63,099 bases of DNA, filler included, from 8 parts of 8 records of this genome joined end to end with filler, not necessarily neighbours in it, one strand, 5' to 3'. Positions 2,288 to 28,421 are shown, numbered from the whole stretch's first letter. The notes: a model not told the origin generated them from the letters alone. Translations and numbers: made by a program.

Positions 2288-3235
2288 ATGAGAAAAGATC
2301 ATATAAATGTCACCGGAAACGGTATTGTTCTTGCGGTAGCCGCCGGTACCGGCTTCGGCCAGTGGTTTGACATGGCGTGGCTGCGGCAGATCATGCCGGT
2401 GTTCCTCTTCATGATGCTCTATCCGGCCATGCTTGATCTGGATGTAAAACAGATCGGACTGACACTGCATAAACCCGGTGTCGTGCTGACCGCTTTGTTT
2501 ATCAATCTGGTCTTTTCTCCTCTTTTGATCTTTGGATTGCTCCGGCTGTTGTGCGCTGAACAGGATCAGGCGCTGATAGTCGGACTCTTTCTTTACGGTT
2601 CAGTGCCCTGTGGCGCCATGGTGCCGGTCTTTACGGGAATACTCAAAGGAGATGTCGGTCTTTCCACGGCAATTTTGACCCTGTCACTCTTCGGAAGTAT
2701 CGCCATCCTGCCCTTGTGGTCGAAATGTCTTTTGGGGACCGTTGTGTCTATGCCCCTGGGTTCCCTTGCCGCATGTCTTTGCTGTATTATTGCGATTCCG
2801 TTTCTCGCGGCAGTGCTGACCCGCTTTTTTCTTTTCAGAAGACTTGAAGAAAAGGATGGTATCCGGTTCCGTAATTATCTTAAACCGGTTGCTGATTCAG
2901 GATTGATCCTGTTCATCTTTACAGTTTTTTGTCTGAACGGCCGTCAGATTGTTGAGCGTCCGGAAATTATGCTGAGGATCGCTTTTCCGGTCCTTTTGTT
3001 TCTTACCCTTCTGGTCCTGACAGCCCGCCTGGCTGCCGGATGGATGAGCGCTTCACGAGAAGACAGCGTCTCCCTTACTCTGTCCGCAACCCCGAAAAAC
3101 AATGTGGTTTCCATGTCCATGGCCTTGTCCGCATTTGGTACGGATGCGGCGCTGGTTATTTCCATTGCCTGCCTGGTACAGCTGCCTTTTATGCTCAGCT
3201 ATATTAAACTAAGGATCGGCTTCAAAATCACTTAA
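2288..3235 (+). CDS. Acr3-like / bile acid:sodium symporter (SBF/BART) family transporter
   Basis: About 10 hydrophobic segments. Motifs LFMMLYPAML, INLVFSPLL, GSVPCGAMV (Acr3-like conserved Cys), KGDVGL and PKNNVVS. Confidence 0.78.
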   Translation: MRKDHINVTGNGIVLAVAAGTGFGQWFDMAWLRQIMPVFLFMMLYPAMLDLDVKQIGLTLHKPGVVLTALFINLVFSPLLIFGLLRLLCAEQDQALIVGLFLYGSVPCGAMVPVFTGILKGDVGLSTAILTLSLFGSIAILPLWSKCLLGTVVSMPLGSLAACLCCIIAIPFLAAVLTRFFLFRRLEEKDGIRFRNYLKPVADSGLILFIFTVFCLNGRQIVERPEIMLRIAFPVLLFLTLLVLTARLAAGWMSASREDSVSLTLSATPKNNVVSMSMALSAFGTDAALVISIACLVQLPFMLSYIKLRIGFKIT

Positions 3236-8650: not shown

Positions 8651-10027
8651 ATGATATACGCCATTACAGATATTGAAACCACAGGAGGCAATGCAAGAAG
8701 AGAGAAAATAACTGAAATTGCAATTTACAAATACGATGGTGAAAAAATCATTGACCAGCTGGTTACTTTAGTCAATCCTGAGCGAAATATACCGTTGCAA
8801 ATTCAACAATTAACCGGCATTACAAATGAAATGGTGGCTGATGCACCAAAGTTTTATGAAATCGCAAAACAAATAGTTGAAATAACCGAAGATTGCATTT
8901 TTGTAGCTCACAATTCAGCATTTGATTACAATTTTATACAGCAGGAATTCAAATCTTTGGGCTATGATTTTCAACGACAGCAACTGTGTACTGTAAAGCT
9001 TAGTCGCAAACTACTGCCGGGATTACCTTCCTATAGTTTGGGAATATTATCGCAACAATTAGGCATCGAAATTGAAGCACGCCACAGAGCCTCCGGCGAT
9101 GCATTAGCTACTGTTGAGTTGTTCTCAAAGCTATTAAAAACACATGCAGGACACGATATTACAGACGTCGAAATAGCTGAAGTTCTTAAAGGTTTAAATG
9201 AGAACCTTGACAAAAATGTGCTGAAAACTTTGCCTGAATCAACCGGAGTATATTATTTTTTAGATGAAAACCACACTCCCATTTATATTGGAAAAAGTAT
9301 CAACATCAAAAAACGGGTGCACTCCCATTTCTCCAATAAAAAGTCAACGCGTGCCATTGAAATGAAATCGCAAACGGTGCATATTGACTACGAGATTACA
9401 GGTAGTGAAATGATTGCGTTATTGCACGAGTCAGCGGAAGTTAAAACCCATATGCCCCATTTTAACCGGTTACTGAGACGATCAACTTTTAGTTGGGGAT
9501 TATATGCTCAAACTGATAAAGAAGGTTATATCAACCTCTTATTAAAGCGGGTGAACCAAAAAAACGGAACGGCTAATGTGCTGTTTAGCAATAAGAAAGA
9601 AGCTGAAAATTATTTACACCGGCAAATCGAGGATTATCATCTTTGCCAAAAGCTTTGCGGTGTATATAAATCGAATTCCGAATGTTTTCACCATCAAATT
9701 GGGTTATGCGATGGCGCTTGCATTGGAGAAGAATCAGCGAATGCTTATAATGACCGCGTTTTACAATTTCTTGAGAAAACAACCATCCCCAACGATTCAT
9801 TTTTTATTATTGATAAAGGAAGAAAAAGCCATGAGAAATCTGTAGTTAAAATCTCTCATGGCGTATATCAAGGTTTTGGTTTTTTTGAACCTGAATTAAT
9901 TCAAAGTCCGGATGAATTACATGATTGTATAAACCATGCTGGCGATAATAAAGACGCCCGAACCATCATTAATAGCTTTCTAAGTCGCAATAAATACGAA
10001 AAACTCATTTATTTTAATGAATCATAA
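8651..10027 (+). CDS. DEDDh 3'-5' exonuclease (DnaQ-like) fused to GIY-YIG/UvrC-like nuclease
   Basis: DIETTG, VAHNSAFD and HRASGDA, then LPESTGVYYF, YIGKSINIKKRV and a Cys cluster C..LCG...CFHHQIGLCDGAC. Confidence 0.9.
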   Translation: MIYAITDIETTGGNARREKITEIAIYKYDGEKIIDQLVTLVNPERNIPLQIQQLTGITNEMVADAPKFYEIAKQIVEITEDCIFVAHNSAFDYNFIQQEFKSLGYDFQRQQLCTVKLSRKLLPGLPSYSLGILSQQLGIEIEARHRASGDALATVELFSKLLKTHAGHDITDVEIAEVLKGLNENLDKNVLKTLPESTGVYYFLDENHTPIYIGKSINIKKRVHSHFSNKKSTRAIEMKSQTVHIDYEITGSEMIALLHESAEVKTHMPHFNRLLRRSTFSWGLYAQTDKEGYINLLLKRVNQKNGTANVLFSNKKEAENYLHRQIEDYHLCQKLCGVYKSNSECFHHQIGLCDGACIGEESANAYNDRVLQFLEKTTIPNDSFFIIDKGRKSHEKSVVKISHGVYQGFGFFEPELIQSPDELHDCINHAGDNKDARTIINSFLSRNKYEKLIYFNES

Positions 10028-11927
10028 GCTTTTGAACAGTTTTACCTCCATTTTGGGATAATATTTCCACAAAGTATACACCTGTTGGCAACATATGAGA
10101 ATATTGATTTTCACTTAAATAATCAATTCTCATTGCCTTACCTGACATATCAAATACTTTCACTGATGCAATTTCCAGGTTGGATTGTATTGTAAATCGA
10201 TCGAATGATGGATTTGGATAAATGACAACTGCTTCTTCATTCAGCTTACTAATACTTACCAAATCACCTTCCTGAACAGAATTACTTTTTGAAATCATCT
10301 CATGGTGAGGATCAAAGCTCACAGATTCAACCTCATGATCAAATTCAGTGGAAAATAATTGTCCGTTTTCAGTATGATGAAACCAAACAACAGTATCTTC
10401 TCCATTTCCATAGATGAATATTGGAATTTTCATTTCAAAGAAATCAACTGAACTGTGTGATTGCGACTGACTTACCTCAAAATAAACTGTAGAGCCATTT
10501 TGATCCCAAACAATATCGTATTGTGGGTAGCCCTCATTATAAATCCAATCATCAAAAAACTCTGTTAGAGTTGTATCAGCTTCATCTTCAAAGTGTGAAA
10601 CAAGATCAGGTGTTAAAGCAAAATCATTGGCCAATTCACCATCATTTAAATAATTACGAAGTGCTTGAAAAAAATCATTATCACCAATTTGTTTACGCAT
10701 CATGTGCAATACCATAGCTCCTTTTGAGTATGATAATCGACCGCTAAAAATATTCCATACATCTGTAGTATCATACACATAAACTGATCCCCCGGGCTGA
10801 GTTACAACATAGTCAGCTTCATATGAGCGCCAATTTTTAAAAGGTTCCTGACCTTGAGAATATTCCACAAATAATCCCTCACAATAGGTGGCAAATCCTT
10901 CATTTAACCATATATCAGCCCATGATCCACACGTTATAAAATCGCCAAACCACTGGTGAGCCAATTCATGTACAACAAGCGATGAGCTTAGGTTAGCCAT
11001 AAAACTCATGGTTTGATGCTCCATTCCTCCTCCCCAACCAAATTGGGCGTGACCATATTTCTCGTCAGCAAATGGATATTTAATAAACAGATCACTAAAG
11101 AAATTAACTGCTGTTACAGTTACTCCGGCATTGTTTACCCATGAAGTATAATTTTCAGGAAATACGTAATTCAAGATTTCCATCACATCGCCATCTTCAA
11201 ATTCTACCGTATTGGTAAATTCATCATAATTGGTAACAGCAATGGCCACAAGATATGTTACAATTGGATGACGATGTTCCCAATGATAAATATCCCAATC
11301 GCCATTATCTACAACCTCAACAAGTACACCATTAGAAGCAGCTTTATTTCCATCAGGAATGTTTATGCTAATATCAATTGAATCAGCCTTATCAGATAAA
11401 GATTGCTTGCAAGGCCACCAGTCTTTTGCACCATAAGGCTCTGATAATGTCCAAATTATCGGCACACCATTATGAGTACTTTGAGTAAATGCGTCCGTTA
11501 TTTTTGATGGTTCACCATGGTAAAAAACATTCACATTTAAAGCAGTTCCTGCAGATAATTCACTATCAAATGTCACTGTAATAATATCATTTTCGTGAGT
11601 ATATGAAATTGGATCTTCTTCATAAAGAATGGAGTCAACAATCATATTACTGCTTAAATCCAGTGTTATTTCTGAAGTATTTTGAATCACAGAAAAATAA
11701 ACGTCAACATTACCGCCAATTGCATTTATCGCAGGGTCAACATTCCAAAAAATATCGTAATAACTCACATTAATGAGATTTCCTGCTTCTTTGTTCATCA
11801 GGTTATCCCAAATCTTTGAATATTTAGATTGTTTCGCTTTAGCGCACTCATGATCGTGTGTGTGATCGTGGTGTTGTGCATAAATTATAAAAGGTGAGAA
11901 TAACAAAATCAGTAATAGTTTTTTCAT
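10014..11927 (-). CDS. M1 family metallo-aminopeptidase with T9SS C-terminal sorting domain
   Basis: GGMEH, HELAHQWFGD, WLNEGFATY and YSKGA. C-terminal IYPNP...TGVYFV. Signal peptide MKKLLLILL suggests the start is 11927. Confidence 0.92.
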   Translation of the reverse strand: MKKLLLILLFSPFIIYAQHHDHTHDHECAKAKQSKYSKIWDNLMNKEAGNLINVSYYDIFWNVDPAINAIGGNVDVYFSVIQNTSEITLDLSSNMIVDSILYEEDPISYTHENDIITVTFDSELSAGTALNVNVFYHGEPSKITDAFTQSTHNGVPIIWTLSEPYGAKDWWPCKQSLSDKADSIDISINIPDGNKAASNGVLVEVVDNGDWDIYHWEHRHPIVTYLVAIAVTNYDEFTNTVEFEDGDVMEILNYVFPENYTSWVNNAGVTVTAVNFFSDLFIKYPFADEKYGHAQFGWGGGMEHQTMSFMANLSSSLVVHELAHQWFGDFITCGSWADIWLNEGFATYCEGLFVEYSQGQEPFKNWRSYEADYVVTQPGGSVYVYDTTDVWNIFSGRLSYSKGAMVLHMMRKQIGDNDFFQALRNYLNDGELANDFALTPDLVSHFEDEADTTLTEFFDDWIYNEGYPQYDIVWDQNGSTVYFEVSQSQSHSSVDFFEMKIPIFIYGNGEDTVVWFHHTENGQLFSTEFDHEVESVSFDPHHEMISKSNSVQEGDLVSISKLNEEAVVIYPNPSFDRFTIQSNLEIASVKVFDMSGKAMRIDYLSENQYSHMLPTGVYFVEILSQNGGKTVQKLMIH

Positions 11928-20534: not shown

Positions 20535-20539
20535 TTTCT

Positions 20540-20588
20540 TTTGACGCAAATATACGTCAAATATTTAAATGACGTATATATACGTTTG
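20540..20588 (-). promoter_or_regulatory. ArsR-like inverted repeat over a Bacteroidota promoter for an off-contig gene
   Basis: TTTGACG-CAAATATA-CGTCAAA (20540-20561) contains the minus-strand -7 element TATATTTG. A second degenerate copy TGACGTATATATACGTT lies near 20570. Confidence 0.6.
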
Positions 20589-20612
20589 ATTTTCTTTACA
20601 AATAAATAATAA

Positions 20613-21074
20613 TTAAATTTTTGTAGTTTCAGCGAAAAGATCCTGTGCAGAAATAAAACCATAATGACGATAAAATTCTTTCCCCTGTTTATCGAGAAGA
20701 ATTTGCATCGGTACCGCAGAAATACCGTAGAATTTCATTAGATCCTGATTTTCAGGTTTCATAATATGTAAAAATACAACCTTCATTTTTACCTGTTCTG
20801 AGATTCTTATTTCATCTAAAACCGGTTCCATTTGTTTACATATTGCACACCCGGAAGAGCTGAATTCCAGAAGAGTATATTCAAAATCTTCCCCATTTTT
20901 AAGAAAATTATATTCTTTCTGAATTGTCTCTTCTACAGTAAGTAAAGTAATTTCAGAATTTTGTTCCTGCATTTTTGTGGAAATAAATTCGTTCAGCTTA
21001 TTTTTAAAGGCAAATCCCAACACAAGAATCAACACCAATAATCCTGATAAAAAAAGATACAAATACTTTTTCAT
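20613..21074 (-). CDS. Membrane-anchored thioredoxin-like protein
   Basis: N-terminal TM, LEFSSSGCAICKQM (CxxC), ISAVP cis-Pro and RHYGF. Confidence 0.85.
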   Translation of the reverse strand: MKKYLYLFLSGLLVLILVLGFAFKNKLNEFISTKMQEQNSEITLLTVEETIQKEYNFLKNGEDFEYTLLEFSSSGCAICKQMEPVLDEIRISEQVKMKVVFLHIMKPENQDLMKFYGISAVPMQILLDKQGKEFYRHYGFISAQDLFAETTKI

Positions 21075-21242
21075 TCTGTAAATTTTATGCTAAGATAGAA
21101 AATTGAAAAATAAAAAAACAAGTTTCAAAATTCAGTTCATCTTACTTAAAGTACTATTTGTCTTATATAAACCGCGATAAGCAATAATTCGCTTTTTCGA
21201 AGAAATTATATTAGTAAATTGCCTTTCCACAACAGAAAATTA

Positions 21243-22061
21243 ATGAGATTTAAAAGGGAATTTATTGGTGAAATACTGGGTACTTTTATTTTAGTTTTAT
21301 TCGGATGCGGTTCGGTTGCTGTTTCCATTCTTTTTAATGCACACCAGGGATTAATGCAAATTGCGTTAGCTTGGGGAATTGGAGTTTCGCTTGCAATTTA
21401 TTTAACAAGGCACTTATCTTGTGCACACCTGAATCCGGCTGTAAGTATTGCCATGGTTATCAGTCGAAGAATGAATATAAAAAAACTGCCCGTTTATTTG
21501 GTTGCTCAATTTTCAGGAGCATTTTTAGCCGGGCTGACTTTGTACATCCTCTTTTCTGCCTCTATTTACGAATTTGAGCAAGCCAATAAAATTATTCGCG
21601 GAACACCCGAATCTGTTAAAACTGCCATGATGTTTGGTGAATTTTATCCAAATCCGGGAAATACAGCTATCGTAAGTTTTCCGTTGGCAATGGCAGCCGA
21701 AGCTTTTGGAACATTTATTTTGGTATTAATGATATTTGCTTTAACAGAGGGATGTAACGTTGGACGCCCGGAAGATGCAATTGCACCCGTTTTTATCGGA
21801 TTAACAGTTTCGTCGGTAATCGGATTAATTGCGCCATTAACACAAGCCGGATTAAATCCTGCCCGCGATTTCGGACCGCGCCTGATATCGTGGATGATGG
21901 GTTGGAAAAATGCCGCTTTTCCCGACACTTCCGGAGGATTTTTCTTTATTTATATTTTAAGCCCTGTAATTGGTGCTGCAATTGCTGCCTTATTTTTTGT
22001 AAAAGTTCTGGAACCCGCAATGAAAAAGAGCAGTATAAAATGTGATTGTGAATCAAATTAA
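21243..22061 (+). CDS. MIP family aquaglyceroporin (GlpF-like)
   Basis: GEILGTFILVLFGCG, SCAHLNPAVS and GLNPARDFGPR. Asp after NPAR marks the aquaglyceroporin type. Confidence 0.92.
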   Translation: MRFKREFIGEILGTFILVLFGCGSVAVSILFNAHQGLMQIALAWGIGVSLAIYLTRHLSCAHLNPAVSIAMVISRRMNIKKLPVYLVAQFSGAFLAGLTLYILFSASIYEFEQANKIIRGTPESVKTAMMFGEFYPNPGNTAIVSFPLAMAAEAFGTFILVLMIFALTEGCNVGRPEDAIAPVFIGLTVSSVIGLIAPLTQAGLNPARDFGPRLISWMMGWKNAAFPDTSGGFFFIYILSPVIGAAIAALFFVKVLEPAMKKSSIKCDCESN

Positions 22062-22081
22062 ACAATAATATTTTTTCGACA

Positions 22082-23200
22082 ATGAAAACAACAAGACTAA
22101 TTTTAGTAGGAGGATTTTTAGGTGCAGGAAAAACAACTTTACTTTGGGAAACAGCAGCAAGATTAATAAAACGAGGTAAAAAAACCGGACTCGTCACCAA
22201 CGATCAGGCACCTGAGCTGGTAGATACAGCCCTTCTCACAAAAAAGGAAATGAAAGTTGCAGAAGTTAGTGGTAGTTGTTTCTGTTGTAATTTTAACGGT
22301 TTGTTGAATGCCTTAAACGAAGTAAGAACAGAAGCTGACGCCGACATTATTATAGCTGAACCCGTTGGCAGTTGTACCGATTTGTCGGCAACAATTATTC
22401 AGCCACTAAAGAAAAATATGAACCGCGAATTAATTATTAGTCCGCTTTCTGTTTTAGCAGATCCTGTAAAACTTTCCAATATTCTAAAAAACGAAACTGC
22501 AGGAATGCATTCAAGCGCGGCTTATATTTTAGAAAAACAACTTGAAGAAAGTGATATAATTGTAATTACTAAAACCGATTTAACAGATTCTGTAGAATTG
22601 GAAAATCTAATCACTAAAACCAAAGAGAGATTTCCGAACTCGGACGTAATGAGTATAAGTACACAATCCGGTAAAGGATTGGAAGAATGGCTGAATGAAG
22701 TACTTACACGAACCGATGCCGGCAAACAAATTGCGGAAGTTGATTATGAAATTTATGCGGAAGGTGAAGCAGTTATGGGCTGGTTAAATACAACACTCAT
22801 ATTAAAAGGGGAAAACATAGACTGGGATAATTTTAGCCGGCAATTTATACAGGGACTAAGCAAAAAATTCGATGATTTGAAAGCCGCTGTTGGACATGTA
22901 AAATTAATATTGGAAAATAACACCAATTACCTGACAGCCAATTTAACAGGAACCGGTGAAACATTAAATATTACAGGCTCTGCAGGCATTTCAAACAATG
23001 CAAGTTTAACCTTGAATGTTCGTGTTGAAATGCCCCCGGAAAAATTGGAAACTATAACACGTAAAATAATTGCCAAAAAAATTGCCAAAAAAATTTCGAT
23101 AAAAGAAAAAGCCTGGCAATGTTTAAGTCCGGGAAAACCGGAACCTACTTTCCGTTATAATTATATAGTTCCGGATAAATTCCTTCCAAACAATAATTAA
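22082..23200 (+). CDS. CobW/COG0523-like G3E P-loop GTPase (putative metallochaperone)
   Basis: GGFLGAGKTT, VTNDQ, GSCFCC (CxCC), AEPVGSC and ITKTD. Confidence 0.88.
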   Translation: MKTTRLILVGGFLGAGKTTLLWETAARLIKRGKKTGLVTNDQAPELVDTALLTKKEMKVAEVSGSCFCCNFNGLLNALNEVRTEADADIIIAEPVGSCTDLSATIIQPLKKNMNRELIISPLSVLADPVKLSNILKNETAGMHSSAAYILEKQLEESDIIVITKTDLTDSVELENLITKTKERFPNSDVMSISTQSGKGLEEWLNEVLTRTDAGKQIAEVDYEIYAEGEAVMGWLNTTLILKGENIDWDNFSRQFIQGLSKKFDDLKAAVGHVKLILENNTNYLTANLTGTGETLNITGSAGISNNASLTLNVRVEMPPEKLETITRKIIAKKIAKKISIKEKAWQCLSPGKPEPTFRYNYIVPDKFLPNNN

Positions 23201-23210
23201 AATATCAAAT

Positions 23211-23582
23211 TTAAACAAGGAAAATAGCTTCCTCATACATTTTGTCAACTACTTCTTCGGTTGGCGGAGTTTTTCCTTTTTCGTATCCCAAATCCGTTAA
23301 CCGAAGATGAATAAAATTATCTAATCCGTTTTTTTCAAAGGTTTTTTTTCCACAATCAAGGCTGCAACCATCAATTACCAACATGTTTGTGTCCTTTACC
23401 GAATCAATCATTTCAGTAATTCCTGCACTAACAAATGCCAGGCATTTCATTTGCCTTGCATTATTTTTATGCAATTTTCTTGCTAATAAATCACTGGCCT
23501 GTCCTAAGTCGGCTGCTCCCGAACAGGCAAAAACAGTGCAATTTTCAAACGAACCACAACTACAACTTAAATTTTTTTCCAT
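23211..23582 (-). CDS. DGC-domain putative zinc-binding protein
   Basis: FACSGAADLGQ, KCLA, VIDGCSLDCG and N-terminal SCSCG. Confidence 0.88.
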   Translation of the reverse strand: MEKNLSCSCGSFENCTVFACSGAADLGQASDLLARKLHKNNARQMKCLAFVSAGITEMIDSVKDTNMLVIDGCSLDCGKKTFEKNGLDNFIHLRLTDLGYEKGKTPPTEEVVDKMYEEAIFLV

Positions 23583-23697
23583 GACTATTGTTTTAAGGTT
23601 AGATATTGATAAAGTTAAAAAATATGCAACAGGTATAATCTATATAAAACCCACTCCTCCAATAAAAATTACTTTCTCATTAATTTACTTCTAATCC

Positions 23698-24471
23698 TTA
23701 GGGTTTTATTTTCTCAAAAAGTCCCAACAACTTAGTATGATAAATTTCAGTAATCTGTTCTTCTGCTTCGCCAATTGGTTTTACAGGAATTAAATCTTTT
23801 ACTTCATCAACTGTTAATCCTGAATTATAAAAAATCGAAATTGACTTTTTTAATGTTGCTTTAATCGTTTTTTGAGCTTCATCTTCATTCAGCCCCATTT
23901 TCAAAGCTAACTTCTGCATCTCTTCCCACTGAAACCAGAAATACGTAGGTAACATGGCTGAAACAAGGGCATAACCTTCCAGTTTATTCTCGTCAACTTC
24001 AAAATTATTGCCCAAAACTTTCATCATTTTCATAAACTGTTTTTTCTCTTTTTCATCAGTTTCAGGATGAAAAGAAACCGGATTATAACCTTTATTTATG
24101 AATGAAGTTGCATTTGGGATCATTCGAATAATCTTGTTTGTTCCCAATACATTTGCTATTTTTTCAATATTAATTTTTGGAGCCACCGAAAGCACTTGTG
24201 TTTCATTGGAAATGAAATCCTTAATTTTGCTTAGTGTCTCTCCCATCACAGGAGGATGAACAGCAAGAATTACAATTTCCTGACCGGCCGGTTCTTCAGC
24301 CGATTGTACCATTTCAATTTCGGGAAATGAAGTTTTCAGAACACTCAGCGTATCGCTGTTTGGATCGAATACTTTAACGTTTTTAAAAACTACTGATTTG
24401 TTTTGAAACGCCTGCAAAAAGATTTTTGTAATCCTTCCGCCTCCTATAAAGCCTAATGTTTTTGATTTCAT
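23698..24471 (-). CDS. Pyrroline-5-carboxylate reductase-like NAD(P)-binding oxidoreductase
   Basis: GFIGGGRI Rossmann motif, LAVHPP, RMIPNA and AMLPTYFWFQ. The C-terminus is unlike canonical ProC. Confidence 0.75.
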   Translation of the reverse strand: MKSKTLGFIGGGRITKIFLQAFQNKSVVFKNVKVFDPNSDTLSVLKTSFPEIEMVQSAEEPAGQEIVILAVHPPVMGETLSKIKDFISNETQVLSVAPKINIEKIANVLGTNKIIRMIPNATSFINKGYNPVSFHPETDEKEKKQFMKMMKVLGNNFEVDENKLEGYALVSAMLPTYFWFQWEEMQKLALKMGLNEDEAQKTIKATLKKSISIFYNSGLTVDEVKDLIPVKPIGEAEEQITEIYHTKLLGLFEKIKP

Positions 24472-24500
24472 TTTGATAAAATTAGTTGTTCTTGATTTTT

Positions 24501-24632
24501 TTAAAAAAATGCATTAATTACTATTAAAACAGCTGCAACTATAGATGTAAGAGCAAAAATATATTTCAGGCTCTTTGGTTAAAACTTCAAGGTTAATTTT
24601 TTGAACCAATTATTCCGCCAACTAAACCAACT
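24501..24632 (-). pseudogene. Remnant of the 3' end of a TauE/SafE (TSUP) family exporter
   Basis: Joining frames gives VGLVGGIIGSK/INLEVLT/KSLKYIFALTSIVAAVLIVINAFF-stop, with two frameshifts and no start. Confidence 0.5.
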
Positions 24633-24700
24633 TCTGTTTTTCAATTAACCCAACAAAAAATTCTGTTCATTTATCGCATAAAAATTTAAAATATTTTAGT

Positions 24701-25537
24701 CTATCTATTATCCATAAATTTGTGATGAGAATCGGCAAATACTTTGTGTGCCAGCGACTCATCGTGACAAGATGTACAGCTCATCTTACCTGAGGTATTA
24801 TCCAGTTTACCATCGCTGCCATGGCATGTCATGCAGGTTCTAACCGTTTCATTGTCATGTGTGTTTGCAATAAAAATATTATTATGATAATTATTTAGGA
24901 TAGTTACGGTTTGAGCGGCTATATCACCGGTCAGGCGACGGCATCTTTCTTTGCGCTCTTTGCTGCTTAAAGTATAACCGGCTTCTTTAGCCCATCTTGT
25001 AGTTGAAACATGACAAAGCACTGATTTGGCCACTGTTTTAGGAGGATCGAATTCCATTCCGGGATTTTCTGGTTTGAAAGAAGGAAGCGGAGACTCCTCA
25101 TACAAACGAAACAATTTTTCCACCAGGGCATCTTGTATTTCCCTTTCTTCAACTAATAATCCGATAACGGCTGCAGCCCCGTTTAACGCCCCGCAAATAG
25201 TTCCTGAGCCATTTACTCCGCCGTGCCCGTATTTCATCATTTGAGTAGGAAAAGAGACAAATGGCTCACCTAATTTTTCAGCTAATTGAGAAATGACACT
25301 GTTAAATACTCCGTACATACAACTGCCATTGGGGTAATCGTTATAGGCCCTTTCTGCTGTAACTACGTGATCTAACGAGATATACTTCCAGATAGAATTG
25401 CCGGCTTTGAAATCCAGATTTTTTGGTTCAGCCGCTGGTTTCACATCAGGTTTGAAAGCTGTTGTAAGAGTTAGCATACCAATACTACCGACTGCCATTG
25501 CACCAGCTGCCAATTTAATAGCTTTTCGTCTTTCCAT
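24701..25537 (-). CDS. Split-Soret cytochrome c-like protein (Tat signal, C-GCAxxG-C-C domain, two CxxCH)
   Basis: MERRKAIK twin-Arg signal, GSCMYGVF, GTICGALNGA, SVLCHVS and ERCRRL. Heme motifs CMTCH and CTSCH. Confidence 0.82.
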   Translation of the reverse strand: MERRKAIKLAAGAMAVGSIGMLTLTTAFKPDVKPAAEPKNLDFKAGNSIWKYISLDHVVTAERAYNDYPNGSCMYGVFNSVISQLAEKLGEPFVSFPTQMMKYGHGGVNGSGTICGALNGAAAVIGLLVEEREIQDALVEKLFRLYEESPLPSFKPENPGMEFDPPKTVAKSVLCHVSTTRWAKEAGYTLSSKERKERCRRLTGDIAAQTVTILNNYHNNIFIANTHDNETVRTCMTCHGSDGKLDNTSGKMSCTSCHDESLAHKVFADSHHKFMDNR

Positions 25538-25586
25538 TTTTTGATTTTTCGGTAATGTTTTTTATTCAAGTTGATTAATTTTCAAA

Positions 25587-26717
25587 CTATAATATTATAT
25601 TGAATAGGTAGCCCAACAGAATAATAAATAACGTAATTGTTCCAAAGAAAATCCCAATGAGTTTCCATTTCATTACTTTTTTTAATAAAGTAGCTTCAGG
25701 TAGCGACAGCCCCACAACGGCCATCATAAAAGCAATGGCAGTACCGAGCGGTACACCTTTGGCCACAAAAACCTGGATTACCGGCACAATTCCGGCAGCG
25801 TTAGCATACATTGGCACGGCCAAAATTACAGCCAGTGGCACTGCATACCATTTGTCAGCCGACAGGAATTCAGTAAAGAAATCTTCAGGAACAAAACCAT
25901 GCATAGCAGCACCAATAGCAATTCCGATGATTACGTAAAGCAGAACTTTACGTACAATTCCCCAGCCATCATTAATAATCGAAGGCAGGCGGTCGATGAA
26001 CGGAGTTTTTTCACCTTCCCATCTTTGATTCTCACGTGCTGCATTTGCCTGAACTTCCCGTACCCAATCGCTGAGATATTTATCTAATTTCAATTTTCCG
26101 AGAATGTAACCGCCAACCATTCCTAACAAAATTCCGCTTCCGGCGTAAATCAAGGTAGATTTTATTCCAAATAATCCCAGGAACATGGCCACAGCCACCT
26201 CGTTTACCAATGGCGAAGTAATCAGGTACGAAAAAGTTACTCCCAATGGTATTCCACCTTGAACAAACCCAATAAAAAGCGGGATTGATGAGCAAGAACA
26301 AAAAGGAGTTACCCCCCCAAAAAATGAGGCGAAGAAATATTCCAGCCCATACATTTTTTTAGTAGTCAGATAAATACGTAAACGTTCCACCGGAAAATAG
26401 GCATTCACCACTCCCATTAATGTACTAATAAGAAAAAGAAGAATAAGAATCTTTACCGTATCGTAGAAAAAGAAGTTAATGGCTTCTCCAAAATGCGACT
26501 CAGCATTTAAACCAAATAAATCAAAAGTAAGGTAATCAACTAAATCTGGAAGAAAATGGTATAATAAAAGTAAAGCTGGTAATACTATTACAACTGAGGC
26601 CAATAAACCTGCTCTCTTCTTTCTTTCCTGTTTTAATTTCGTTTCTGAATTTTCGACAGGGTATACAGCACATTCACCTCCTCCTTGTTTTTCTGTCGAT
26701 ATTTTGTATGTTTTCAT
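25587..26717 (-). CDS. arsP: ArsP-like permease (DUF318)
   Basis: FFFYDTVKI, TPFCSCSSIPLF, SPLVNEV, PMYANAAG and GTAIAFMMAVVGLSLPE. Confidence 0.85.
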   Translation of the reverse strand: MKTYKISTEKQGGGECAVYPVENSETKLKQERKKRAGLLASVVIVLPALLLLYHFLPDLVDYLTFDLFGLNAESHFGEAINFFFYDTVKILILLFLISTLMGVVNAYFPVERLRIYLTTKKMYGLEYFFASFFGGVTPFCSCSSIPLFIGFVQGGIPLGVTFSYLITSPLVNEVAVAMFLGLFGIKSTLIYAGSGILLGMVGGYILGKLKLDKYLSDWVREVQANAARENQRWEGEKTPFIDRLPSIINDGWGIVRKVLLYVIIGIAIGAAMHGFVPEDFFTEFLSADKWYAVPLAVILAVPMYANAAGIVPVIQVFVAKGVPLGTAIAFMMAVVGLSLPEATLLKKVMKWKLIGIFFGTITLFIILLGYLFNIIL

Positions 26718-26800
26718 TTTATTCAGTTATTTAGGCTACAATCATTAGTCTGCAATAGAACTTTTTCGCCTAAAGTAATCTGTCTGCTTTCTTATTTCAA

Positions 26801-26830
26801 TTCGTTGTTCGTAAAATCACGAACATTATT
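26801..26830 (-). promoter_or_regulatory. ArsR-like box upstream of arsP
   Basis: TGTTCG-TAAAATCA-CGAACA inverted repeat. The 30-bp context is nearly identical to 28255-28284. Confidence 0.72.
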
Positions 26831-26878
26831 TTCAAAAAAAATTTAACTTCCCCTTTGACGTTCAGCCCATTTCAATTT

Positions 26879-27580
26879 TTAAAAGAACATTACTACACAA
26901 TAATAAACCCCAACGCCAATAAACAACACAGCTACAACACGACGAAACCAAATTTCGAAAGTTTTTATTTTGTTGTATAAGCTGCCGATTGAACCAACAC
27001 TAAATGCCAGCAACCAGGCAATTATTATGACTGGAATTCCGGTTGCAAAGGCAAAAACCAAAGGCAAAAACAATCCTTTTGCTGAAACGATTGACATGGG
27101 AATTAACATTCCGAAATATAAAACACCACTGTACGGACAAAAAGCCAGTGCAAAAATAATTCCCAGCAAAAGTACATTCCAGAAATTCCAACGGTTTTTT
27201 TGTTCCAGTTTTTGAGAAAACCTGTTAAGTCCGGGGAGATTTATCTGAATTACTCCCAACATAAAAATACCAATAACAACGAGCAATGGTCCAAGAATTT
27301 TTTCTCCGTTACTTTGAAAAAAAGTGGCAATTTTAAAATGGTCGGCACCAATATAAAGTATTACTGCCAATATAAAATATGAAAAAGCTCTGCCTAACGT
27401 ATAAATTAATCCATTATAAAAAACCCTGCTTCTGACATTTAAATCTTTTCCAATAAACCCAATAGCTGTAATGTTTGTAGCCATCGGACAAGGACTGATT
27501 GCAGTAAGGAGTCCTAATAAAAATGCCGATAGAACAGGAATACTTGATTTTTCGTACAGGCCGGTAATTATCTGTTCCAT
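26879..27580 (-). CDS. arsG: ArsG-like / CcdA-DsbD-type membrane protein (aromatic arsenical efflux family)
   Basis: AISPCPMATNITA, YTLGR and LAFCPYSGVLYFG. Lies next to arsF-like and arsE-like genes. Confidence 0.75.
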   Translation of the reverse strand: MEQIITGLYEKSSIPVLSAFLLGLLTAISPCPMATNITAIGFIGKDLNVRSRVFYNGLIYTLGRAFSYFILAVILYIGADHFKIATFFQSNGEKILGPLLVVIGIFMLGVIQINLPGLNRFSQKLEQKNRWNFWNVLLLGIIFALAFCPYSGVLYFGMLIPMSIVSAKGLFLPLVFAFATGIPVIIIAWLLAFSVGSIGSLYNKIKTFEIWFRRVVAVLFIGVGVYYCVVMFF

Positions 27581-27589
27581 TTTACAGAA

Positions 27590-27994
27590 TTAATCAACCA
27601 AAATCTCCCACAACGCTTCTCGTAATTTCTCGGGTTGTTTCAATGCATACATAAAACCCTTACTGGTAAGGTCAAACTTTTCGCCTTCTTTAACCACCAT
27701 TAAGGCAGAACCGGTAACATTCATCTTTTTCACCAGCTCTTTATTGGAATCTTCTTCGGCATTAAAAGCCTTGAATAATATATCTCCATTTTCAACTTCT
27801 TCGGCAAACGAATCTTCCAATACCTTTTTTGCTTCTTTCTCAATAGCTATACATGTTGCACATCGCCTTGTATTATGAAAATAATAGACCGTGGTTTTTT
27901 CGCCATCTTTATTGATGTCAAAAGATTTTGCATTTCCGGTAAAACTTAATGAAAAAACAAAAATGAGGAGTAATAATGATTTTAAAGTTTTCAT
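27590..27994 (-). CDS. arsF: ArsF-like secreted thioredoxin-fold protein
   Basis: Signal peptide and VYYFHNTRRCATCIAIE. Confidence 0.72.
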   Translation of the reverse strand: MKTLKSLLLLIFVFSLSFTGNAKSFDINKDGEKTTVYYFHNTRRCATCIAIEKEAKKVLEDSFAEEVENGDILFKAFNAEEDSNKELVKKMNVTGSALMVVKEGEKFDLTSKGFMYALKQPEKLREALWEILVD

Positions 27995-28004
27995 TGATTT
28001 TATT

Positions 28005-28238
28005 TTATGCGGTTAACAACGCTTTTAATTCATCTGATTTTGGCAATCTACCTGTTAATACTACTTTACCATCAACAACCAATCCCGGAGTTTGCATTAC
28101 TCCAAATTGCATAATTTTATATATATCCTCTACTTTTTCGATGGTCGCATCCAGGTTTAATTCTATTACTACTTTTTCGGTTAGTTGCTCTAATTTTTTG
28201 CATTTTGCACAACCTGTTCCTAATACTATAATTTCCAT
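28005..28238 (-). CDS. Small redox-active disulfide protein 2 (thioredoxin_3, ArsE-like)
   Basis: MEIIVLGTGCAKCKKL, KVED, GVMQTPGLVVDG. Start ATG 28238. Confidence 0.9.
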   Translation of the reverse strand: MEIIVLGTGCAKCKKLEQLTEKVVIELNLDATIEKVEDIYKIMQFGVMQTPGLVVDGKVVLTGRLPKSDELKALLTA

Positions 28239-28254
28239 TTTCGATAACTTATTG

Positions 28255-28284
28255 TTCGTTGTTCGCAAAATTACGAACAATATT
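28255..28284 (-). promoter_or_regulatory. ArsR-like box overlapping a Bacteroidota -7 promoter element
   Basis: TTGTTCG-CAAAATTA-CGAACAA (28259-28280). The minus strand reads TAATTTTG (TAnnTTTG) inside it. Confidence 0.75.
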
Positions 28285-28294
28285 CTAAAAAAAA

Positions 28295-28421
28295 CTATTC
28301 GGGGAACATATTTTTAAACAGAATTCTTGCCCGTTCCCAATTTGCACGATTAATACAATACTTAATTTTAGGCGATTCAATTTCACCCTGGATTAAACCG
28401 GCATCTTTTAATTCTTTTAAA
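28295..28421 (-). CDS. arsR: ArsR/SmtB family regulator, 3' fragment cut by the contig edge (missed by the ORF track)
   Basis: My translation: LKELKDAGLIQGEIESPKIKYCINRANWERARILFKNMFPE-stop. Confidence 0.85.

Follow-up and report, generated by a model that had tools for sequence, protein, structure and literature searches.

A contig of 7887 bases, which fills exactly positions 20,535 to 28,421 of a 63,099-nucleotide stretch of DNA (the window, made of eight contigs joined by artificial N44-TTAATTAATTAA-N44 linkers), carries a cluster of arsenic resistance (ars) genes enlarged by several accessory genes. We consider it probable, at roughly 0.6, that this is an ArsR-controlled resistance system of the arsR-E-F-G-P type, in which the genes for a cysteine-rich DGC-domain protein, a relative of pyrroline-5-carboxylate reductase (P5CR-like), a split-Soret-type cytochrome (SSC) and an anchored thioredoxin would be working parts. 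Read in the order of transcription on the minus strand, the cluster runs from a 3' fragment of arsR through arsE, arsF, arsG and the gene for an ArsP_1-family permease to the SSC gene, a remnant of a TauE gene and the P5CR-like and DGC genes. On the plus strand, converging on the DGC gene, stand a gene for a GlpF-like channel and then one for a CobW-like GTPase, and the gene for the anchored thioredoxin of 153 residues, the second thioredoxin of the cluster, closes the contig on the minus strand. The core belongs to a known kind of cluster. What is new is the addition of three or four recurrent accessory genes, along with a shared operator-like palindrome, and there are good grounds to regard the P5CR-like, DGC and SSC genes as candidates for new ars functions.

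Accessory genes and their genomic contexts

The contexts of homologues in relatives (loci designated by L numbers) were annotated by tblastn, with the window proteins and a few proteins of relatives as queries (E <= 1e-5), and by Pfam spot checks. The first-pass annotation of this DNA had proposed an undescribed arm of partner proteins made up of the cytochrome, DGC, P5CR-like and CobW-like proteins, and had suggested co-occurrence with ars genes as a way of checking it. The first three do recur in ars clusters, but the CobW-like protein does not clearly do so. The anchored thioredoxin, which was not among the partners named then, recurs in ars clusters too; in relatives, its gene follows the DGC gene in five adjacencies and the P5CR-like gene likewise in five.

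The P5CR-like gene was found in 19 of 251 sampled genomes of the order (E <= 1e-30), 17 of which have ars genes no more than 10 kb from it, in diverse arrangements: it follows the permease gene in 10 adjacencies, and is also found after DGC, after arsR, before SSC or beside Acr3. The two exceptions are a 38% match at the end of a contig (L078) and a broken copy at the start of another (L079), which retains upstream of it the palindrome described below. The protein shares with ProC the Rossmann and P5CR dimerization domains, and every one of its best solved relatives is a P5CR (with 3gt0 in first place, at 62 bits). It differs in scoring below the TIGR00112 cut-off for proC (101.8 against 196.75 bits), in being embedded among ars genes, and in having KPIGEA aligned to the SPGGTT of 3gt0, a stretch of P5CR that we take to be the substrate-binding site. 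In a protein atlas it resembles clusters, mostly of Bacteroidota origin, that bear the name 'pyrroline-5-carboxylate reductase family protein'. It has no cysteine at all, and the earlier remark that most members of the cluster carry Cys motifs is thus true of most, but not of this one. In the window, the remnant of TauE sits within the 229-base gap that separates the SSC and P5CR-like genes. The corresponding order in L001, a Draconibacterium locus, is SSC-ArsR-rhodanese-TauE-P5CR-like, beside arsR-arsC-acr3, and this is the intact form of the SSC-remnant-P5CR-like arrangement of the window.

The DGC gene is present in 16 of the 201 genomes of the family sample, at 17 loci, and the arsR-E-F-G-permease core stands at 16 of these loci, the permease gene being directly upstream of DGC in 11 of them. 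In the phylum sample, it is present in 7 of 301 genomes and lies in ars clusters in two of the seven (L019 and L020), while the other five genes belong to a distinct subfamily, only 21-27% identical, and stand beside unrelated genes. Residues C20, S21, G22, C47, D71, G72 and C77 are invariant in the 27 aligned sequences, but an N-terminal CxC is found in 21 of 22 aligned members of the subfamily to which the window protein belongs and in none of the five members of the other. None of the five loci of this second subfamily (L014-L018, with the gene at about 9800-10300 in each) is near ars genes, and in three of them the neighbours are genes for haem-copper oxidase subunit I, SCO1, ScdA/hemerythrin or DUF2249 proteins, those in the remaining two being unrelated. 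A structural model of the window protein (pLDDT 85.3) has a generic three-layer alpha/beta fold, for which Foldseek returned no PDB match at E <= 0.001. Its best VIA-align match, 3pu6 (Z 7.7, rmsd 3.1, 104 aligned), stands among generic alpha/beta folds and gives no functional lead, and a search for longer, fused DGC proteins yielded a single and uninformative match, on a contig of 972 bases.

A link between DGC and ars genes is already in print, in passing and for another phylum, since Pseudodesulfovibrio mercurii ND132 is reported to have an operon arsR5-arsP-arsE-DGC (PF08859) that is up-regulated by arsenic and whose DGC protein is described as being of unknown function (bioRxiv 10.1101/2022.10.17.512643). 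Common to that operon and the window cluster are an ArsR, a permease of the ArsP family, a thioredoxin of the ArsE type and a PF08859 protein, whereas arsF, arsG and genes for the cytochrome, the P5CR-like protein and the anchored thioredoxin are no part of that operon. A literature search on the DGC domain and arsenic returned only papers on diguanylate cyclases. A separate observation concerns an open reading frame (ORF) of 368 residues that stands directly before DGC in L019 (4505-5611), L182 and L183 and, in L075, between arsG and an hgcA-like gene. A relationship to CobW was considered and rejected (BLASTP E 14), and the ORF has just a weak match to outer-membrane beta-barrels (E 0.00038); it may be an outer-membrane channel of the system.

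The SSC protein aligns to the split-Soret cytochrome c of Desulfovibrio desulfuricans ATCC 27774 (PDB 1H21; 137.7 bits over residues 42-263) and keeps both CxxCH motifs and the four further cysteines of the extra iron centre, but falls below the NF047622 equivalog cut-off (209.7 against 400 bits). Its twin-arginine pair, these four cysteines and both CxxCH motifs are invariant in seven homologues. As residue 42 of the query aligns to residue 11 of the chain, the mature 1H21 chain would start near query residue 32. One homologue is annotated in its source as 'Tat pathway signal protein', and a distant one (L032, 987-2132, 32-37% identical) bears a type IX secretion C-terminal sorting domain, which implies that a protein of this type can reach the cell surface. 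The RR pair, the offset to 1H21, the type IX tail and the Tat name together suggest that SSC is probably exported. A simple hydropathy scan of the cluster proteins found a single N-terminal hydrophobic segment in SSC (residues 6-24), in ArsF (4-22) and in the 153-residue thioredoxin (1-27), and no hydrophobic segment in the ArsE, DGC, P5CR-like or CobW-like proteins. The P5CR-like protein is therefore probably cytoplasmic, and since SSC is probably exported a direct electron chain between the two is unlikely.

The SSC gene was found in 6 of the 251 genomes of the order. When a second Draconibacterium genome is included, core ars genes lie within 10 kb in five of seven genome loci (L001, L028, L029, L030 and L032); of the other two, L031 has just an ArsE-type thioredoxin and a TauE gene, and L002 stands alone. 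A metagenome scan with the alignment of seven sequences gave 79 loci. An ars-family gene lies within 5 kb of SSC in 44 of these. Where the flank is at least 2 kb long, the proportion is 28 of 50, and for flanks of at least 4 kb and at least 8 kb it is 17 of 32 and 9 of 18, respectively. If ArsR and the small thioredoxin are not counted, 31 of all 79 loci still have such a gene, as do 15 of the 32 whose flank reaches 4 kb. In the 79 loci, the gene directly upstream is a permease gene in 20 and arsR in 10, and a P5CR-like gene is present in 11. Pfam scans of nine ars-free loci showed neighbours that are unrelated and mutually different, with no recurrent context. Ars clusters are the sole recurrent context seen for SSC, and about half of the SSC genes stand alone. 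No published link of split-Soret-type or P5CR-like genes to ars clusters was found in the literature searched, which lacks most subscription journals and is thus weak evidence on this point.

It might be argued that the accessory genes are passengers, ars islands being recombination hot spots in which genes gather without any working link to arsenic. Remnants of genes are indeed found in several of these islands (TauE in the window, fragments of a P5CR-like gene and of AcrB in L006 and L019, respectively, and an ArsC that is truncated in L005), many clusters lie on short contigs or at contig ends, and unrelated 23S_rRNA_IVP genes, which encode four-helix proteins, are inserted in the clusters of L005 (10473-10853, read as an ORF) and L029 (1053-1418, a Pfam match). 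However, the linkage persists through rearrangement, as the many positions of the P5CR-like gene attest, and the accessory genes are co-directional and separated by short gaps. The N-terminal CxC, moreover, marks the ars-linked DGC subfamily as opposed to the ars-free one, and the same pipeline gave low values for its internal controls, with ars genes at 0 of 5 loci of the ars-free subfamily and at 3 of the 20 CobW-like loci. We regard the passenger explanation as very improbable.

The core cluster and its operator-like palindrome

Profile searches and alignment confirmed the presence of every gene listed for this contig in the first-pass annotation, the TauE remnant included (Table 1). The listing of arsR stands with a restriction: the C-terminus matches the ArsR of relatives (72-77% identity over 39 residues to the end of the full ArsR in L005 and L006), but just the last 41 codons are on the contig, and this 41-residue fragment alone gave no Pfam match. 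In L020, the ArsR genes match HTH_5.

Table 1. Genes and operator-like elements of the contig, with positions in the window
Feature	Position	Strand	Basis
Anchored/exported thioredoxin, 153 aa, CAIC	20613..21074	minus	PF13098, PF00085; hydrophobic 1-27
GlpF-like aquaglyceroporin	21219..22061	plus	TIGR00861, 180.3 bits (cut-off 171.25)
CobW/COG0523-like GTPase, CFCC motif	22082..23200	plus	PF02492, 83.7 bits
DGC-domain Cys-rich protein, N-terminal CxC	23211..23582	minus	PF08859, 85.8 bits (cut-off 27)
P5CR-like NAD(P)H oxidoreductase, no cysteine	23698..24471	minus	PF03807; TIGR00112, 101.8 bits
TauE/SafE remnant, last 32 codons, in-frame stop	24504..24599	minus	66% identical to end of L001 TauE, E 2.6e-9
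SSC, twin-arginine leader, C_GCAxxG_C_C domain, two CxxCH	24701..25537	minus	PF09719; NF047622, 209.7 bits
ArsP_1-family permease, TPFCSCS motif	25587..26717	minus	PF03773, 223.9 bits (cut-off 32.3)
Second copy of 25-nt palindromic element, before permease gene	26801..26825	minus	Pattern search
arsG, DsbD_2/CcdA-type polytopic membrane protein	26879..27580	minus	NF040495, 307.4 bits (cut-off 200); PF13386
arsF, thioredoxin-like, N-terminal signal/anchor	27590..27994	minus	NF040494, 101.1 bits (cut-off 60)
arsE, small cytoplasmic thioredoxin-like, CAKC	28005..28238	minus	TIGR00412, 112.1 bits (cut-off 62); PF13192
25-nt palindromic element TGTTCGT-N-ATTTT-N-CGAACAACGAA, before arsE	28255..28279	minus	Pattern search
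arsR, last 41 codons, truncated at contig end	28298..28421	minus	Reading frame; match to relatives

The core cluster is common in this bacterial order, ArsG being found above its family cut-off in 151 of the 251 genomes, and the partner genes are optional extras. Among close relatives, of the genus Draconibacterium, L005 has the order arsR-E-F-(inserted IVP gene)-G-permease-DGC, and L006 the order arsR-E-F-G-permease-(P5CR-like fragment)-thioredoxin. In the known ArsEFG system, ArsG is reportedly an efflux permease for aromatic amino-arsenicals and ArsF a nitroreductase subunit, as the NCBIfam names also have it. The window trio resembles that system in consisting of three adjacent genes of the same families, all over the cut-offs, in the order E-F-G behind arsR. 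It differs in that an ArsP_1 permease gene and then further genes follow arsG, and in that the trio looks by family like a thioredoxin-CcdA-thioredoxin relay, whereas the published role of ArsG is that of an efflux permease. ArsF has its CxxC (CATC) at residue 45. ArsG matches NF040495 over profile positions 2-224 of 225 and Pfam DsbD_2 at 62.8 bits, and carries Pro-Cys motifs at Cys31 (SPCP) and Cys148 (FCPY). These features would fit a carrier of thiol electrons at least as well as a pump.

The ArsP_1 permease gene stands after arsG in 31 examined loci besides the window, and the columns of its TPFCSCS motif are invariant across 34 homologues. At least three diverged types of permease occur in these clusters, namely that of the window, one about 45% identical to it and one of 438 residues. 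ArsP of Campylobacter jejuni is said to be a methylarsenite efflux permease, reportedly from work by Chen et al. in 2015. The window permease is like it in belonging to the Pfam family ArsP_1 and in its ArsR-linked location, a likeness at family level. Curated models are another matter, as the protein scores 118.8 bits against a cut-off of 325 for SaoE (NF040736) and 75.6 against 300 for SO_0444 (NF033936). In three relatives, a small ORF resembling BFD-like [2Fe-2S] proteins lies between arsG and the permease gene (L044, 7142-7405; L073, about 11595-11807; L074, about 11008-11181).

A palindromic element of 25 nucleotides stands before arsE and again before the permease gene. The 63 kb window contains no further copy, and the number of occurrences expected is 0.00. 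Its 18-nucleotide core, GTTCG-N8-CGAAC, has 63 sites in 1.68 Mb from 154 non-redundant loci, compared with 0.85 in mononucleotide shuffles. In relatives, 17 sites stand before arsE and 15 before arsR, 9 more falling on the 5' edge of an arsR match, while the permease gene has 13 sites before it and 2 at its edge. Just 2 of 87 SSC genes and 1 of 39 P5CR-like genes are preceded by a site. It was found before none of 26 DGC, 14 anchored-thioredoxin, 42 ArsC, 28 Acr3, 17 channel, 8 TauE and 4 HgcA genes, and of 27 CobW-like genes a single one has a palindrome, which belongs to a divergent arsR. The element is likely to be the operator of the cluster's ArsR, to judge from its placement, and as such it would be a handle for defining the regulon. 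If so, there would be two regulated units in the window, arsEFG on the one hand and, on the other, the permease gene together with those downstream of it. It also bears on the start of arsE, for which the ATG at 28238 is likely, as an ORF from a TTG at 28280 would overlap the element. Scans of sigma-70 promoters (32 sites against 27.4 in shuffles) and of terminators (10 against 5.6, with no site at an informative position) added little.

As the span is a single contig, linkage to anything outside 20,535-28,421 cannot be assumed. The other contigs differ greatly from it in G+C content (about 0.27 to 0.53 across the window), and the bin may combine several organisms. These contigs hold one further ars-type match, 26% identical and Acr3-like (2405-3226), and otherwise none with the queries used. 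The closest relatives of the contig itself are Maribellus comscasis (89% identity for DGC) and metagenome-assembled genomes of Draconibacterium, which fits the Bacteroidota origin assigned to it earlier. Homologues of SSC are found in Puteibacter caeruleilacunae and in Saccharicrinis.

The channel-CobW pair

Two genes of the cluster show a different pattern of association. The channel is closest among solved chains to GlpF (169.9 bits, against 47.5-53.5 for AqpZ) and carries the NPAVS and NPARD boxes of the MIP family. The GTPase shares with YjiA, ZigA and CobW the P-loop and the CxCC motif, its CFCC aligning to the CiCC of YjiA, but it is far below the equivalog cut-offs for CobW (35.7 against 332.1 bits), ZigA (39.2 against 600) and a CobW-related selenoprotein (63.6 against 180). 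In-frame TGAs in matches to the CobW-like protein were considered as selenocysteine codons and rejected, since they are read-through terminal stops in the four loci checked.

Close homologues of the CobW-like gene (49-64% identical) occur in about 23 of the 201 family genomes, and the best 20 loci were examined. At 12 of them, two of which are broken, the channel gene immediately precedes it, and this pairing with an aquaglyceroporin gene may set the window type of GTPase apart from known COG0523 GTPases and GlpF. Ars core genes are present in the examined stretch of three loci (L196, L197 and L202), and the other neighbours are varied. Taken together, these counts indicate that the channel and the CobW-like protein form a separate module, and the pair looks inserted between the DGC and thioredoxin genes of the window, which are direct neighbours in five other loci. 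An ArsR-family gene stands directly before the pair in three of the 20 loci (L196, 8231-10541; L197, 9440-11747; L210, 363-2895), where the pair lacks the palindrome and may answer to its own metalloid-type regulator.

These results bear most directly on the full version of the earlier proposal, in which the cytochrome and the P5CR-like, DGC and CobW-like proteins would form a single electron-supply and metallochaperone arm, the channel serving as an arsenite gate and the CobW-like protein as a metalloid chaperone. The location of the pair inside the window cluster, between genes that are neighbours in five relatives, is in accord with this scenario, as are the ArsR genes before it in 3 of 20 loci, its position between two ars clusters in L196 and L197, the divergent arrangement of arsR and a more distant CobW-like gene in L044, and the retained CxCC motif. 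However, 17 of the 20 close CobW-like loci have no ars core in the examined stretch and are varied in their neighbours, the 79 SSC and 16 DGC loci scanned showed neither a channel nor a CobW-like gene, and no ArsR-type palindrome precedes the pair. A probably exported cytochrome and a cytoplasmic P5CR-like protein are, in addition, difficult to reconcile with one electron chain. We consider the full version improbable, and on present evidence the CobW-like gene is not a well-founded ars candidate.

Proposed working of the system and its alternatives

Returning to the ArsR-controlled resistance system with working accessory parts, the following scheme can be outlined from family membership and gene order. 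A trivalent arsenical would bind ArsR and release it from the palindromes, thereby switching on the arsEFG and permease units. Reducing power would pass outward across the membrane from the cytoplasmic CxxC of ArsE through the CcdA-like ArsG to the exported CxxC of ArsF, with the anchored thioredoxin as a possible second acceptor of this thiol relay, and the permease would export an arsenical in trivalent and probably organic form. Binding of the arsenical in the cytoplasm and its transfer to the permease could fall to the DGC protein, which carries an additional CxC at its N-terminus. Outside the cytoplasm, the exported SSC, with two haems and four cysteines, might act by redox chemistry on the relay or on what the permease exports, and the P5CR-like enzyme might consume NAD(P)H with a substrate that is not pyrroline-5-carboxylate. 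The particular roles assigned to the accessory proteins are rather doubtful, and much less probable than their participation in the system as such.

Several points weigh against the reading as a whole. Roughly half of the SSC genes have nothing but unrelated neighbours, and SSC is not confined to ars clusters, since linked and unlinked genes are intermixed on a quick tree (14 label changes, against 20.7 in shuffles). The verdict that a locus has no ars genes depends on tblastn with a limited set of queries, and the co-occurrence counts are inflated by shared descent because the genomes are related. The accessory genes are also rare, the P5CR-like gene being present in 19 and SSC in 6 of the same 251 genomes that have ArsG in 151. 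The permease fails every curated equivalog cut-off, and the thiol relay, which is deduced from family membership only, differs from the NCBIfam names 'nitroreductase subunit ArsF' and 'efflux permease ArsG'. Finally, ArsR-family regulators sense many things, and the TauE, rhodanese and hgcAB-like genes in the islands of relatives also fit sulfur or mercury stress.

The last of these points leads to a broader view, according to which the system would answer thiol-reactive stress in general (reactive sulfur, mercury, soft metals, selenite or tellurite) and arsenic names would be misleading for the accessory part. The ArsR-rhodanese-TauE module between SSC and P5CR-like genes in L001 would fit this, together with the TauE remnant in the window, and so would the curated models nearest to the permease, SaoE and a Cu/Zn exporter, although both are under cut-off, and the selenoprotein forms that exist in several of these families according to NCBIfam names. 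So would hgcAB-like pairs, which lie beside or inside the clusters at four loci (L032, 9630-11004; L066, 424-1735; L075, 11950-13201; L191, 3081-4300) and consist of an hgcA-like gene with a CdhD-type domain and an hgcB-like gene with two 4Fe-4S motifs. In some methylators, hgcAB is reported to be located with ars genes (bioRxiv 10.1101/2022.10.17.512643), and the pair of L075, which lies between arsG and arsC-arsP, fits the link described in that preprint. On the other hand, most relatives have ArsC, Acr3 and ArsA genes in the same islands, the palindrome stands at arsR, arsE and arsP and at none of the TauE and HgcA genes, and the DGC operon of P. mercurii is reported to be induced by arsenic. 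The broader view appears unlikely, if not negligibly so.

Within the preferred reading, of an arsenic resistance system with working accessory genes, a bolder and rather doubtful possibility may be formulated. DGC, P5CR-like and SSC would be three undescribed ars genes that, together with the ArsE-ArsG-ArsF relay, would allow anaerobic Bacteroidota to carry out oxygen-independent redox chemistry of organoarsenicals on both sides of the membrane, with binding in the cytoplasm and hand-off to the permease, followed by haem and iron-sulfur chemistry on the exported species outside. If this were true, the system would take the place of the oxygen-dependent ArsH, ArsI and ArsV of aerobes, and ArsG would be an electron carrier rather than a pump. 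The data cast a testable doubt on the published role of ArsG, and hgcAB-like genes occur in the same clusters at four loci.

In arsenic-resistance operons, testing unexplained neighbours has repeatedly given new enzymes, and here there are three unexplained genes that are strongly and repeatedly linked to ars genes in Bacteroidota from sediments and gut-related sources. Were these accessory genes to act on arsenicals, they would explain how strict or facultative anaerobes handle methylated and aromatic arsenicals without oxygen, a matter of relevance to the cycling of arsenic in guts, paddy soils and sediments.

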